Part shown: in pieces, positions 15,662 to 34,059 of the stretch
Numbering within the stretch: position 1 is the stretch's first letter
How the letters are laid out: each line of letters begins with the position of its first letter
Program-made: the position numbers and the translations under genes
The notes under the pieces: generated by a model
What the model was told of the DNA's origin: nothing
The model's database searches: none
The model's input: the letters and a program-made list of their open reading frames with translations, nothing else
DNA from: a virus
Taxonomy: Duplodnaviria; Caudoviricetes
Direction: 5' to 3' (one strand)
Virus record (IMG/VR): IMGVR_UViG_3300048881_000514
Span: 1 to 45,811 of that record
Length of the DNA: 45,811 nucleotides

Positions 15662-16315
15662 ATGAATAGAGGTCAACTGATAAGAGTCGCACATCAAAAT
15701 CCAAAGTATAGGAAGAAACTTATTTCGGTTCTTCAAGCACATGATAAAGTTTCTAGGATGGTGAAAGAAGCAGGTAGAGGACTACCTTTATCTAAAATTC
15801 AAAAGTATGCTGAAACAGGTGTTCTTATTATCTCAGCTTACAGAGGAAAGTATTCTTTAGCTGAGAACAAAAAAAGAAATGAATCACTTAGACAAGATAT
15901 TCTTTCTATGGGTGTTCGTCCAAATCAAATTGTAAAACTTGATTCTTCTTGGACAGAGTTTGATTCGGGAAAGATCGAACTAGAGAAAAGCTTTGCGGTT
16001 CTTAGACCTCTACCTTTTAAGATTTGCATGGGCATTTCAAATAGGTATGACCAAGACGCATTTATTTGGTCTAGTGAAATTAACCCTTTGGCTATGTATT
16101 CAACGACAGGGAAAGCTACTTTCGCAGTTGATAGAAGTTTGGCTCTTGTTATCGTTAAAGCTGAACATAATGAAGAGTTTAGTAAAGGAAGAGGCGGTGC
16201 TTCTTTCACTCTAGGGTTTAATTGGAACAAACCTGTTGATTGGGATCGTAGGAATCCGATCACTAACGAAGATATCTTAGCTAGATTAGATCTTGCTGAA
16301 GTACCTCAAGACTAA
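15662..16315 (+). CDS. DUF3293-like protein with N-terminal extension
   Basis: IISAYRG...EN..RN..L..DI...EKSFAV...YDQDAFIW. Confidence 0.6.
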   Translation: MNRGQLIRVAHQNPKYRKKLISVLQAHDKVSRMVKEAGRGLPLSKIQKYAETGVLIISAYRGKYSLAENKKRNESLRQDILSMGVRPNQIVKLDSSWTEFDSGKIELEKSFAVLRPLPFKICMGISNRYDQDAFIWSSEINPLAMYSTTGKATFAVDRSLALVIVKAEHNEEFSKGRGGASFTLGFNWNKPVDWDRRNPITNEDILARLDLAEVPQD

Positions 16316-29896: not shown

Positions 29897-30607
29897 TTAA
29901 AATAAATCAAAGATGGAAATAGTATCTCCTTCTTGAGCTTCTTTCTTCCCTACTTCTGCTTCAGATTCAATCTCTGTCCCAATCGGCATCCAATGTCTAA
30001 TACGGGCTTCACAGATTTCTGCATATTCGGGCTGAAGTTCAACACCTACAAAGTCATAACCTAAACGGCTCATGGCTATACCTGTAGTGCCTGAACCTAA
30101 GAATGGATCTACGACTTTTGAGTTAGGTTTTATATCTCTAGCACACCATTCCATGATTTCTATGGGTTTCACTGTCGGATGTGCATTTGCTCTACCCTCT
30201 TCTTTCTCTTCAAGACCTGCTTCTCTTTCTGAACGGCTTGCTTTTGAGGTGTAATAAAAGGTGTCGGGTTCTTCTGCTACAAAGATAGCGTCTCTCACTT
30301 CAAACCCTTTATCTTCAAGAGCAATCACACCCTTATATCCAATATCTTTGGGGATAAGAATACAGTGCCCACCAGGTTTTAGGATTTGATGGATCTGTTT
30401 CGCCTCTTCTTCGGTTGGTTCACCTAGTAAAATAACCCCATGAACAGTTGGTCTTTTTGAGGGTACAACCGCACCACTTGCAAACCCTTGAGTGTCGTCT
30501 TCAAGGTGGGACTCGAAGTCTATTTCTGAAGGCTTTGCTACGAGAACTTTTGCGTCTTCTACGGGCGGAGTAATCATAGTTAAAAAGTAATCAATCATCT
30601 CTTTCAT
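29897..30607 (-). CDS. DNA methyltransferase part C: degenerate catalytic fold plus SAM-binding motif I
   Basis: ILKPGGH...LEDKGFEVRD (no DPPY), FYYTSKASRSER, HPTVKP, VVDPFLGSGTTG, GVEL..EY.EI..ARI. Confidence 0.9.
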   Translation of the reverse strand: MKEMIDYFLTMITPPVEDAKVLVAKPSEIDFESHLEDDTQGFASGAVVPSKRPTVHGVILLGEPTEEEAKQIHQILKPGGHCILIPKDIGYKGVIALEDKGFEVRDAIFVAEEPDTFYYTSKASRSEREAGLEEKEEGRANAHPTVKPIEIMEWCARDIKPNSKVVDPFLGSGTTGIAMSRLGYDFVGVELQPEYAEICEARIRHWMPIGTEIESEAEVGKKEAQEGDTISIFDLF

Positions 30608-30608
30608 T

Positions 30609-31076
30609 TTAGTTTCTTTCTTGAGGTAAAGGTTTAATCTCAATATTATTATTTATGAGGTAGCTCAATCCTTCGTGGTGATCTCCTTCTTTATATATCG
30701 GAGAATACACTCTAACGATACCCGAATGATGGATTGCTTTTGCACACATCAAACAAGGGTCGCAGTTTACGATCAACCACTTCCCTAACGTAGACTGACC
30801 CACTCTTGTAGCATTGAGAATTGCATTCATTTCAGCATGGTGACACCCGACATCATTTCGATTGCCACTCTTTATTTTTTTAGTTTCTCTTTCACAAGCA
30901 ACCCCTCCGCAAAGGTCTTCTTTAGAACCTCTGGGAGTGCCATTATAACCCTCACTTATGACCACGTTATTCTCAGGGTCTACGATCAAACAGCCTACTT
31001 TTCTTCTTGGGCAGGGTGAGTTTGAAGCGATAAGGTTACATTGTTGAACTCGAACAGAAAGATGTTTAGGGTTCAT
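30609..31076 (-). CDS. dCMP deaminase
   Basis: SPC.RRKVGC, GYNG.PRG, HAEMNAI, PCLMCAK; start at MNPKHL. Confidence 0.92.
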   Translation of the reverse strand: MNPKHLSVRVQQCNLIASNSPCPRRKVGCLIVDPENNVVISEGYNGTPRGSKEDLCGGVACERETKKIKSGNRNDVGCHHAEMNAILNATRVGQSTLGKWLIVNCDPCLMCAKAIHHSGIVRVYSPIYKEGDHHEGLSYLINNNIEIKPLPQERN

Positions 31077-31512
31077 TTGGTTCTTCTTTCTTAAATTGTT
31101 TAAAGAACCTAGAAGCACCCCCTCCGTCTGAATATAGAGTTCCTTGTTTTTGATATGATCCTTGGTTCGGTCTGTACAGGCTTTGACTTTGAGCATTAGA
31201 AGGATAGTTCCCCGTAGAGGGTCGATTGCCACTTTGTACGTCAAGACTGATGACTGAGTTGTCCCCCATAAGAATGAAGTTAGCAGGCCATCTACCATTT
31301 GCAGGCACATAATTATTTAGATCTATTTGGTTCTCACCTGTAAAAGTCGCTACTCCTTGACTCCCTGACTGATTTCTTTCCCATTCTTTGAAGAAGCTTT
31401 CTTCATCTGTTTCTATTCTACTCTCATCAATATTTAAAGCCCCACAACCATGTTTAAGAGTGTTCTCAGCTACTGTACCCTCTAAGGGTTTTCTAAGAAT
31501 GGTGATGATCAT
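31066..31512 (-). CDS. DNA methyltransferase part B, copy 2 (middle/variable module)
   Basis: RKPLEGTVAEN.LKHG.GALNID..RI...GRWPAN...GGASRFF. Confidence 0.85.
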   Translation of the reverse strand: MIITILRKPLEGTVAENTLKHGCGALNIDESRIETDEESFFKEWERNQSGSQGVATFTGENQIDLNNYVPANGRWPANFILMGDNSVISLDVQSGNRPSTGNYPSNAQSQSLYRPNQGSYQKQGTLYSDGGGASRFFKQFKKEEPNEP

Positions 31513-32081
31513 TTTTTAATCCCAATACAAATACTTTCCCATGCGGGTTTAAGAGCCGTACCCCAACCCTCCCATTTAGATGTTCCTCTTGTAATTACCT
31601 CTTTACCGTAACCAAAGATTTTTTTGTTGTTCTGATTTGCAGGGTCTGCTGTATATCCTACTCTTTTTTTGATTGCTTCATCTACAGAACCTCTTTCTTT
31701 AACACCTAAAACTTCTCTTTCGGTCCCACATATCTTATCAATAGTTTTACCTAGATTATGAGATTTCGGGAATCCACTCCCATAAGTCCATGCTTCTATT
31801 CGTAAATCTGAGAAACCTATTTCTTCCATCATTGCTATTAAATGATGGAAAGTCCTCGATCCTGAGAAGGCTTTGATCACCCCATTAGGTTTTAAGATTC
31901 TATGGGCTTCTTTAAGCCAACCTCTATGCCATTCTCTTTGCTGACTTCCGTTTCCTATGTCATCCCAACCTTTTGACATAAACTTTAGTCCATAAGGTGG
32001 GTCGCAGATAACAGCGTCAACTGAGTTATCCTCTATCTCTTTTAATCGTTGGGTGCAATCACCTATTTTTATTTCTATCAT
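31509..32081 (-). CDS. DNA methyltransferase part A (DPPY catalytic half, N6A/N4C beta class)
   Basis: GDC...DNSVD..ICDPPYGL.FM..WD, RILKPNG, RTFH, YGSGFPKS, WEGWGTALKPAWE; lacks FxGxG. Confidence 0.92.
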   Translation of the reverse strand: MIEIKIGDCTQRLKEIEDNSVDAVICDPPYGLKFMSKGWDDIGNGSQQREWHRGWLKEAHRILKPNGVIKAFSGSRTFHHLIAMMEEIGFSDLRIEAWTYGSGFPKSHNLGKTIDKICGTEREVLGVKERGSVDEAIKKRVGYTADPANQNNKKIFGYGKEVITRGTSKWEGWGTALKPAWESICIGIKK

Positions 32082-32680
32082 TGATCATTCTCTTTCTTAA
32101 ATTGTTTGAAAAACCTAGAAGCCCCTCCCTCACTTGCAGGGTTTTGAACTCTCCGTTCATACATTTTCCCAAAGGTTGTATATTGACCTCCTTTAGCGAT
32201 ACTGTCCATTGCTCCGCTTTTCAGTACCCCACTCTGATCATCAAGATTCTTAACAGGGCAACCCTCTTCACAGATCCAATCAGATATAGTTTCTTCTCCT
32301 TGATATGGGTCATTTGCTCTTTTCTTCAGACCATCTTCATACAACCCTTTCTCACGAACTCCCCCTCCATTTTCTGTATATTTCTTTCCCACTTTAATCT
32401 CTTTCACCCCTTTTAACTCACAGCCCTTTTTATGAATAAGAATAAAGTTAGCTGGCCATCTACCATTAGGTTGCACATAATCTCCTGCATTTCCTCTCTC
32501 ATATCTCCAATTTTCTTTACCATCATGTCTTTCTATTGGGTTTTCAGCATAAGCTCCCCCATTAAGATTATCTGAGGTCGATATACGACAGGAGTCTATA
32601 TTTAAAGCCCCACAACCATGTTTCAGAGTATTCTCAGCGACTGTACCTTCTAAGTGTTTTCTAAGGATAGTGATGATCAT
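32078..32680 (-). CDS. DNA methyltransferase part B, copy 1 (middle/variable module)
   Basis: Same three conserved blocks as 31066..31512, with different intervening segments. Confidence 0.85.
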   Translation of the reverse strand: MIITILRKHLEGTVAENTLKHGCGALNIDSCRISTSDNLNGGAYAENPIERHDGKENWRYERGNAGDYVQPNGRWPANFILIHKKGCELKGVKEIKVGKKYTENGGGVREKGLYEDGLKKRANDPYQGEETISDWICEEGCPVKNLDDQSGVLKSGAMDSIAKGGQYTTFGKMYERRVQNPASEGGASRFFKQFKKENDQ

Positions 32681-34059
32681 TTTTTACTCCTGATTATTTT
32701 TGCCACTGAACACAAGGTAGTCGCTACTGAAAAGCTTGACCTCACAAGATATAAAAGTCTTTCTGTTGGGAAAGGCTCATATAGACATTTATAGGTGTTA
32801 AGTATAGTTTCTAAGTTGGCTATATTCTTGTTTATCCCCACTACCCTTAAAGGAGAAATAAGTGCTTTATCAATAATGGGGTGGATACCTTGTATGTTAG
32901 CTAATATCGGAATTGAACCATTAACGTATCCATTTTTTAACATAAGGTTCATATTTAACAGGGCTTTTTCAGTTCTTGATCTTTTCAATCTAGCTTCCCC
33001 TTCGGTAGCCCCACCCACTTTCACTCTTATTAAAGTACCACCCAACATTGAAGCTCTCTTTCTCCAAAGGTCTTGTGTGTGGTTATGTTGTGAGTTGTTC
33101 GCTTCATGTAGAAGTCGCTCTATCCTTTGACCTGTTACTTCTGCGTGATCATCGTAAGGGTCAATAATCAGCTCATTCTGTTTTAATGTTATTTCTCTAG
33201 CCGAACCGAAGAACTCAAGCTTAAACTCTGAATAAATATATGGGTCATATAAAGTCCCACCTGTGAAGGAAGCTACATCTTCTAACCAACCTTTACCCCA
33301 TGTAACTAAAGGTGCTTCTATTGCGTAGGCTTCTACTACACCTTCTTCTCTATTTCTTTTCAGAGTAGCTAGGGCTTCACCTCTCATCATAGGGCAAATG
33401 ATCACTAAAGGTCTGTTAGGGAAAGTCCCCATAAGCTCTAATGGGGATATTATATCTTCAAACTTAGATATGCGTTTTGGGATTAAGGCAACTATTGGAC
33501 CTTTCAGTGTGGTTTGTTCTTGGATGTGATGGTTTTTTGAGTCTGAATAAAAGCTCTCTGACTCTATAACCTCGCACCCAACCCCTTCGTATTTTTCAAG
33601 TGAGATATGAGATTCAGCTCCCGAAAGAAATACAGCGTCTGCGAGTTGATCAGCAAATTCTAAACCTTCCCCTACGTCTACTAGTTGTTCTTTTTGTGCT
33701 TCCTTAGATTGGGCTATTATTCGACTTTCTATCTCAGGTAAATAAGAAAGAATCTCTTTAGTGAGGTCAGGGTGTCCTCCATGTTTATGTTTCGCTAGGG
33801 ACCTCATCAGTGAAATCGTCATAAAACACCCTAACTTACCCCCATCCCCACTGCCCATAACGTCTAAAAAGCCTCTTTGGACTACTTTATGTTGGGGTTT
33901 CCATTGATTTAGAGTTGATTTCGCTGATAAATTAGTAAATACTTGATTATTTCTTGAGATTGCCACAGTTTTCCCGCTTGAAGCGTGAGAACATACCATT
34001 AGTTTGGATATTTCTTCTATATCTCTACTGAATTGTCTAAAGCTCATTTTGTCCCCCAT
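32677..34059 (-). CDS. divergent GroEL/Cpn60-like chaperonin
   Basis: GK.V.I, GDG, RPLVII, EALATL..N, AP..G...LED.A..TGG, G.A..I.......I, L.G....KVGGATE.E; ATPase motifs altered. Confidence 0.8.
   Translation of the reverse strand: MGDKMSFRQFSRDIEEISKLMVCSHASSGKTVAISRNNQVFTNLSAKSTLNQWKPQHKVVQRGFLDVMGSGDGGKLGCFMTISLMRSLAKHKHGGHPDLTKEILSYLPEIESRIIAQSKEAQKEQLVDVGEGLEFADQLADAVFLSGAESHISLEKYEGVGCEVIESESFYSDSKNHHIQEQTTLKGPIVALIPKRISKFEDIISPLELMGTFPNRPLVIICPMMRGEALATLKRNREEGVVEAYAIEAPLVTWGKGWLEDVASFTGGTLYDPYIYSEFKLEFFGSAREITLKQNELIIDPYDDHAEVTGQRIERLLHEANNSQHNHTQDLWRKRASMLGGTLIRVKVGGATEGEARLKRSRTEKALLNMNLMLKNGYVNGSIPILANIQGIHPIIDKALISPLRVVGINKNIANLETILNTYKCLYEPFPTERLLYLVRSSFSVATTLCSVAKIIRSKK

Follow-up and report, generated by a model that had tools for sequence, protein, structure and literature searches.

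Homodimeric beta-class DNA methyltransferases (MTases) divide their work: one subunit methylates and the other provides the DNA-binding domain (PMC7544214, PMC11380664). Loop-45 and loop-6F serve the methylating monomer of M.BceJIV in reading DNA, its partner uses the target-recognition domain (TRD), and the interface consists of helix C, strands 4-6 and loop-45 (PMC11380664), while CcrM reads bases by loops 2B, 45 and 6E (PMC6787082). METTL3-METTL14 and MTA1-MTA9 are beta-class heteromers of an active subunit and a subunit with eroded motif IV, and the phage-derived beta-class MTase M.EcoGII is non-specific (PMC7544214). Naturally split enzymes with complementing pieces are described for the cytosine-5 (C5) class, in which M.AquI and M.EcoHK31I are each made of two polypeptides (PMC3404938). 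Flow of MTase genes among phages has been shown, with no split form in the accessible text of that study (PMC10333322). Here we analyzed a 45,811-nt stretch of DNA from a marine phage (Duplodnaviria; Caudoviricetes; IMG/VR record IMGVR_UViG_3300048881_000514, positions 1 to 45,811), hereafter the window, in which a beta-class amino-MTase is encoded by three kinds of gene, A, B and C. This layout is real, conserved and selected; as an architecture it is new, although the enzyme class is known. We consider it probable that the enzyme would work as A:B:C, with one active domain and a reader partner, that its A and B copies would give several specificities, and that it likely serves anti-restriction; of the three-chain layout itself we are far more certain. 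In a full-text literature search, whose coverage excluded most subscription journals, no description of a three-gene or multispecific amino-MTase was found.

The cassette comprises the following features:

B1, 32078-32680, minus strand: 200 amino acids (aa); subunit with strand 7 and the target-recognition region; three inserts
V1 insert of B1, 32468-32581, minus strand
V2 insert of B1, 32261-32419, minus strand: inside an H..C/CxxxCP motif
V3 insert of B1, 32129-32227, minus strand
A, 31509-32081, minus strand: 190 aa; catalytic half with strands 3-7; C-terminus exactly after strand 7
DPPY motif of A, about 31992-32003, minus strand
A-V, variable module of A, 31587-31733, minus strand: loop equivalent to loop-45 of CcrM and M.BceJIV
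B2, 31066-31512, minus strand: 148 aa; second B subunit, with V1 and V3 and without V2
V1 insert of B2, 31300-31413, minus strand
V3 insert of B2, 31123-31227, minus strand
Deoxycytidine monophosphate (dCMP) deaminase, 30609-31076, minus strand: 155 aa
C, 29897-30607, minus strand: 236 aa
Cn, residues 1-112 of C, 30272-30607, minus strand: dead, circularly permuted MTase domain
Cc, residues 113-236 of C, 29897-30271, minus strand: S-adenosylmethionine (SAM)-binding half with HPTVKP and DPFLGSG
DPFLGSG motif of Cc, about 30089-30109, minus strand
C-V, variable slot of Cc, 30188-30211, minus strand: empty in the window's C
GroEL-like open reading frame (ORF), 32677-34059, minus strand: its stop overlaps the B1 start

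As a first-pass annotation of this DNA had stated, B1, A, B2, the deaminase and C are intact ORFs that are coupled or overlapping. ATGA overlaps link B1 to A and A to B2, an 11-nt overlap joins B2 and the deaminase, and the start of C lies 1 nt past the deaminase stop (a TTG at 30643 is possible as an upstream start; homologs begin at 30607). In Pfam, A, with DPPY, corresponds to the N-terminal part of PF01555 (family positions 1-97) and C, with DPFLGSG, to its C-terminal part (149-219). Searches of B1 and B2 against Pfam and PHROG matched no Pfam family and gave phrog_3008 as their only match. The two B genes share three DNA anchor blocks as described earlier (D1-D3 of 96, 46 and 38 nt, 87-91% identical; dN 0.07 and dS 0.75 between the genes), and their inserts differ (V1 21% and V3 20% identical).

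To this layout independent sequencing runs and related loci attest. The runs compared are labelled as hydrothermal-vent and marine metagenomes. Contigs of runs X3 and X4, neither of which is marked as a possible source of the record, bridge all four junctions with identical letters, X3 spanning B1/A, A/B2 and B2/deaminase and X4 spanning deaminase/C. In all 31 IMG/VR loci found with B2, the pieces are separate ORFs or a B-C fusion, and none has a single fused chain. No intact single chain occurred in the 39 metagenome loci that were mapped, the best of 58 (L224-L262, many of them duplicates of IMG/VR records), one of which, L255, encodes six A, three B and one C. Sorting loci L032-L142 on residues 1-60 of C gave 22 groups, a coarse division in which one group mixes two types and another mixes partial loci; in these groups C was never present in more than one copy, and the copy numbers of A and B varied. 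The gene orders A-B-C, B-A-C, A-A-B-C, B-A-B-C, A-B-B-A-B-B-C and B-A-B-A-A-B-A-C were seen, distant members have C-A-B and B-C-A, and the split clade reaches six A and four B copies per single C. The split, whose presence in related phages the first-pass annotation had left to be examined, extends over a clade of large phages, several members of which also have more than one B. A B profile matched 15,253 representatives at E up to 0.001, and complete stand-alone B proteins made up 46 of the 150 best representatives at the 50% level. A genome-contig search of 2 of 64 parts gave 80 loci at 24-52% identity, mostly in the SAM half, and has no bearing on cellular genomes.

A tree built from the catalytic core (79 rows, 105 columns) places 33 of the 34 split A proteins, together with five C-A fusions, on one branch (100/99), which lies among single-chain homologs; the exception, A of L066, joins single-chain enzymes on a long branch. 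The median ratio of nonsynonymous to synonymous substitution (dN/dS), taken over pairs with dS of 0.05-1.2, was 0.10 for the A core (40 pairs), 0.13 for the B anchors (247 pairs), 0.09 for Cn (15 pairs) and 0.06 for Cc (13 pairs). All pieces, including the dead half of C, are under purifying selection, and the earlier argument against simple decay holds, with no piece near a ratio of 1.

The pieces were aligned to a profile of 40 intact single-chain homologs, on which they tile in the order A (3-184), B (179-312) and C (307-422). The 6-position overlap at each junction indicates that a strand is duplicated: strand 7 in A and B, and the 'FFY' strand in B and C. DPPY is present in 34 of 34 A homologs, and [DE]PFxGSG with HPTxKP ahead of it in 93 of 93 C homologs; motif IV is found in none of these 93 C or of 40 B. 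The N-terminal half of C gives a second match to the catalytic half (positions 46-91), with DPPY absent. The body of Cn (C residues 63-109) corresponds to single-chain residues 45-92 (E 1e-14), and its head, the first 15 residues of C, to positions 365-377, the helix that normally follows HPTVKP (hhalign E 1e-4, weak when taken alone). As motifs X and I precede motifs IV-VII, Cn is circularly permuted: a motif-X helix and strand 1 are followed by strands 4-6, loop-45 and strand 7 are missing, and motif IV is eroded to HGxILLxEP. The first-pass annotation had rightly seen FxGxG and a second, DPPY-less half in C; that half, which it called decayed, is no relic and instead a selected, permuted dead domain that is predicted to receive B. 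Most likely, C arose by tandem duplication, fusion and trimming, and the order within C is that of the intermediate predicted for permutation by duplication (PMC3320104).

The beta-class pieces are three ORFs here, and natural fusions join them in the orders B-C and C-A. In 15 B-C fusions the end of B joins the helix of C as in the parent chain, and P0130 and P0253 are B-B-B-C fusions. In six C-A fusions the end of C joins the first strand of A, four of them with a short linker between the last Cc helix and this strand. Among the best 120 longer A homologs (at least 334 aa; 8000 candidates) there was no A-B fusion within the clade; a distant A-B chain, P0301, is considered below. Another protein, P0289, combines a dead A-like half lacking DPPY with B and tandem V3 repeats and has no SAM half; by its sequence, it is perhaps an independent reader-only subunit of the family.

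Structure prediction points to the same partition. The fold of the C-A fusion P0192 was predicted with a mean local confidence (pLDDT) of 80.5 and a predicted template modelling score (pTM) of 0.75, and its residues about 101-414 (Cc and A) resemble class I MTase domains (Z 19.4, root-mean-square deviation (rmsd) 2.3 Å over 177 residues). In this model, Cc and A make up one full class I MTase domain; that the top structural matches are tRNA MTases is attributed to a shared motif order. In the B-C fusion P0058, Cn is confidently folded and on its own resembles a Rossmann MTase domain in the I-to-IV order (Z 6.0, rmsd 2.4-3.1 Å over 91-97 residues). The best matches of A and C among PDB sequences are homodimeric beta-class MTases, and a search of the B profile against solved structures gave no match (best E 0.65).

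The prediction that the first strand of B completes Cn was set down before the complex was modelled. Modelling of A, B and C together had been proposed in the first-pass annotation; in the complex of the window's A, C and B2, B2 scored 0.90, and the best control, with C replaced, scored 0.37. Of 157 solved complexes 116 attain the mark for such scores, as do 2 of 215 mismatched pairs, a benchmark that is a rough guide for this case. The runs have at least 76% of contacts in common, with a partner pLDDT of at least 61. The contacts of lowest error place B2 residues 3-6 between residues 81-85 and 102-109 of C, that is, in the strand-7 slot of Cn, and B2 also contacts A at 95-117 and 170-183. The predicted complex, modelled with no DNA, thus has B in the dead domain of C and touching A, and B is predicted to dock on C as an exchangeable subunit.

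These results suggest how the enzyme may be assembled. A and Cc would form the sole active domain, and B and Cn a partner that likely reads DNA, the first strand of B filling the missing strand-7 slot of Cn. Because Cn is a dead domain without strand 7, B is predicted to fill the slot and A with Cc to make one domain, A:B:C likely rebuilds the division-of-labour dimer. By analogy with the solved beta-class dimers, we infer that neither half retains parts beyond those that its role requires: A and Cc would have kept DPPY, loop-45, loop-6 and FxGxG without a target-recognition region, and Cn and B the target-recognition region along with the helix and strands of the dimer interface, having lost both catalytic motifs and both loops. 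Since each C offers one strand-7 slot, B1 and B2 would be alternatives that compete for it. The reader/methylator division of beta-class enzymes appears here to be encoded as three genes, with unused parts removed and exchangeable reading parts.

The direct homologs are single-chain phage beta-class N6A/N4C MTases with a GRWPAN insert (PF01555; phrog_67 and phrog_3008), exemplified by mycobacteriophage 'DNA methylase' genes and by the huge phage LR745208. They have insert alleles in common with the split genes, and some carry two or three tandem B modules; unlike the enzyme here, they are one chain without a dead permuted domain. No specificity data for this family were found in the literature, and none of 50,697 annotated phage records covers 80% of C. 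M.BceJIV, CcrM, M.EcoP15I Mod2, M1.HpyAVI and M.RsrI consist of two identical full chains, in contrast to three different chains here, for which one active site is predicted and in which each half has lost what it does not use. Cn resembles the inactive partner in METTL3-METTL14 in that its eroded motif IV goes together with selection. However, METTL3-METTL14 and MTA1-MTA9 are eukaryotic MT-A70 enzymes of two whole chains, whereas the three partial chains here belong to PF01555 and have no MT-A70 match, and the dead domain is permuted, lies on the same chain as the SAM half of the active domain and would be completed by an exchangeable subunit. M.AquI and M.EcoHK31I differ in their C5 class, two pieces and fixed specificity and lack a dead domain and alternative subunits. 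Multispecific C5-MTases of Bacillus phages, on which there are reports by Trautner (1996) and Walter (1992), reportedly carry several short modular recognition units that may be gained, lost or exchanged. The allele clusters, empty slots and tandem B repeats described below are like that feature; those enzymes are single chains of C5 chemistry with proven specificities, whereas ours has amino-MTase motifs, belongs to PF01555 and would owe its specificities to modules discussed next. The first-pass annotation had likened the exchange of B to that of Type I HsdS. The likeness holds in function, both being separate exchangeable subunits that would set the target, and not in descent: B is no HsdS homolog and has no Pfam match, and it would complete a fold by strand donation. 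No match to the HsdS, HsdM or HsdR families occurred among the scanned ORFs of the 45.8-kb contig.

The variable parts of A, B and C occupy places where beta-class enzymes read bases. The insert of A begins at GFPK, aligned with the start of loop-45 in CcrM (a numbering offset of 8 residues was deduced), that of C lies just ahead of HPTVKP in loop-6, and B stands at the TRD position. Counting the empty class, A-V alleles form 14 clusters in 37 split sequences, V1 alleles 18 in 61, V3 alleles 17 in 39 and C-V alleles 17 in 153; one of the C-V clusters is an artefact of the pattern, the V3 of some B proteins escaped detection, and V2 alleles were not separable since the pattern spanned anchors. 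The 63 B sequences show 52 recorded V1/V2/V3 patterns, and V3 allele a is paired with seven V1 alleles in seven proteins. Inside alleles, dN/dS is 0.01-0.32, and a comparison of alleles across slots gave no sign of transfer between different slots (top local scores 37-42). Tandem B is also seen in single-chain members, 14 A-B-B-C and 2 A-B-B-B-C of 150. From sequence comparison, the A-V loop and the B inserts appear to be selected modules of 30-55 residues that are shuffled between phages and are common to single-chain MTases; their position and selection suggest that they read bases.

The window's own A illustrates this. Over the core it shares 89-91% identity with the nearest split A proteins, and its A-V is at most 25% identical to their inserts and 82% identical to the insert of the single-chain MTase P0166, the core of which is 32% identical by the same measure; judged from these identities, the window's A is a mosaic. 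The window's A-V allele is carried by 92 of 115 single-chain homologs, a share that is biased because the window's A was the query. Strain variation was drawn from four runs and stored loci: the closest relative, L224, has a 95% identical flank, a near-identical B2 and a different A-V allele, and B inserts distinguish the members of the pairs L074/L076 (>99% identical) and L077/L087 (about 98.6%). Four joints in run X5 either bracket A-V, V1 and V2 or link B1 to B2, which is weak evidence (single contigs, short sides, 85% likeness). In L071 (2143-2652), a B protein ends in a copy of the last 27 residues of A, by its sequence a sign of recombination at shared anchors. A short B of 103-108 aa with the V1 module alone recurs in L082, L097, L100, L073, L042 and L071, and in L082 it is the sole B of the cassette. 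Around V2 of B1 (32261-32430), H..C and CxxxCP form a possible zinc site by their pattern; the motif is found in 26 of 40 B proteins, is absent in B2 and present in the single-chain MTase of LR745208, and CxxxCP occurs in 1 of 40 close single-chain homologs.

The idea of a hetero-oligomeric MTase with swappable B subunits needs one amendment. A selected multi-chain enzyme and the predicted docking of B stand; the variation is not confined to B, as A is equally multi-copy and variable, and specificity would probably come from combinations of A and B. We tentatively extend this, with distinctly less confidence than the A:B:C reading and short of favouring it, to a combinatorial multispecific kit, in which the hub C would take any of several A and any of several B with modules recombined from other phages' methylases. 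With n A genes and m B genes, up to n × m enzymes would result, 2 here and 18 in L255. If true, this would be the first multispecific N6-methyladenine/N4-methylcytosine methylase system, a natural intermediate of permutation by duplication retained as a working part, and a ready scaffold to reprogram DNA methylation. If the modules set specificity, phages could outrun restriction-rich hosts without a whole methylase per site, and the modules would give a first handle on recognition by a very large, uncharacterized family of phage methylases.

The methylation would likely shield phage DNA from host restriction. In the whole window, six-base palindromes occur at 0.55 of expectation; of 45 testable ones, 20 are under a quarter of expectation and 16 are absent. 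GCGC occurs 0 times (66 expected), CCAG 30 (221), GCAGC 3 (38) and CGACG 0 (22), so that GCGC and GCAGC, like CCGG and CGCG, are missing or nearly so. The per-locus median for six-base palindromes is 0.40 in 21 split-clade loci vs 0.705 in 26 loci with single-chain MTases, although these loci are related to one another. GTAC, TTAA, GATC, TGCA and AGCT are left unavoided, which is not attributable to the enzyme. Site avoidance suggests that the hosts carry numerous restriction systems, and it renders anti-restriction the most likely role; the purpose proposed in the first-pass annotation is thus plausible, on circumstantial grounds. Elsewhere in the window, a 217-aa protein (15662-16315, plus strand) matches Pfam S-AdoMet_lyase below the cutoff (25 bits vs 28; E 1.9e-5) and has an Atlas score of 0.92 to viral clusters, 48% of which carry this family. 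Going by these matches, the SAM-lyase-like gene would be a second anti-restriction device.

Several observations weigh against the A:B:C enzyme with several specificities. Avoidance of sites testifies to restriction pressure and does not prove that this enzyme counters it, and a SAM-lyase-like protein, if the matches hold and it is co-expressed, would drain the methyl donor, which raises a question of timing. The slots may be empty, as C-V is in 92 of 153 C, and the inserts are rich in Gly, Ser and Lys, unstructured in models and unlike any known TRD. The P0058 model is weak overall (pLDDT 50.9, B inserts <50; a Z of 6 is modest). The complex score is that of B2 alone; as beta-class dimers are already solved, it may in part reflect likeness to them. 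The A-B chain P0301, which stops at the B/C junction and has strand 7 just once, is left unexplained by the two-slot model, and the L031/L065/L098 locus has A in two pieces and a B remnant.

Some of these points favor an enzyme of three real chains whose inserts play no part in base reading; it would be an adenine methylase of broad or no specificity akin to M.EcoGII, with B1 and B2 giving the same marks and insert variation serving escape from host sensors or binding of other partners. We regard this as unlikely, though it is the strongest of the competing accounts. The apparently unstructured, low-complexity inserts, the occurrence of every slot empty in some cassettes, the phage-derived beta-class precedent and the continued avoidance of many sites by the phage all suit it, but the slots fall on the base-reading loops and region of CcrM and M.BceJIV, purifying selection acts on the alleles, which move as whole units, and A and B multiply while C stays single. 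More doubtful still is a different purpose for the same architecture and specificities, namely discrimination of phage from host DNA or regulation of replication or transcription: the cassette does lie among replication and recombination genes (RecA, RuvC-like, SbcCD-like, clamp loader), and the solved structures nearest in sequence, CcrM and M.BceJIV, are those of regulatory MTases, yet modules and copy numbers turn over fast between close phages, as suits an arms race more than housekeeping, and site avoidance is strong.

We hold it very improbable that the pieces are joined in translation, by a -1 frameshift at the A-rich ATGA overlaps or by read-through, into a single chain. A ends in an A-run that overlaps the B2 start, where a -1 shift would be in frame; however, the same A-rich overlap links the GroEL-like gene and B1, gene order in relatives varies (B-A-C, C-A-B and B-C-A), with gaps between genes (L091, L094 and L042) and inserted genes, and strand 7 is duplicated at the junction. 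Fusion by frameshift was rejected on these grounds. An assembly artefact or decaying pseudogene fragments, to which the broken A and B remnant of L031 might point, have next to no probability given the junctions bridged in independent runs; breakpoints constant across the clade and purifying selection refute this account, and inteins or intein-like inserts in conserved motifs of relatives' A and C also speak against it. These inserts interrupt YG|SGFP of A and HP|TVKP of C (L097:5998-7767; P0132-P0134 and P0203; L066:1639-3528; P0129, P0131 and P0122); those in C have LAGLIDADG matches, and those in A have weak or no Pfam matches.

The window is a single 45.8-kb contig, and the genome that it belongs to is probably much larger; related contigs reach 375 kb. 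The neighbors of the cassette are phage replication, recombination and lysis genes. The dCMP deaminase lies inside the cassette here and elsewhere or not near it in relatives, and is probably a passenger. The divergent GroEL-like ORF (460 aa, phrog_5725, without Pfam match), which overlaps B1 by ATGA, is the usual upstream neighbor of the cassette in the clade.

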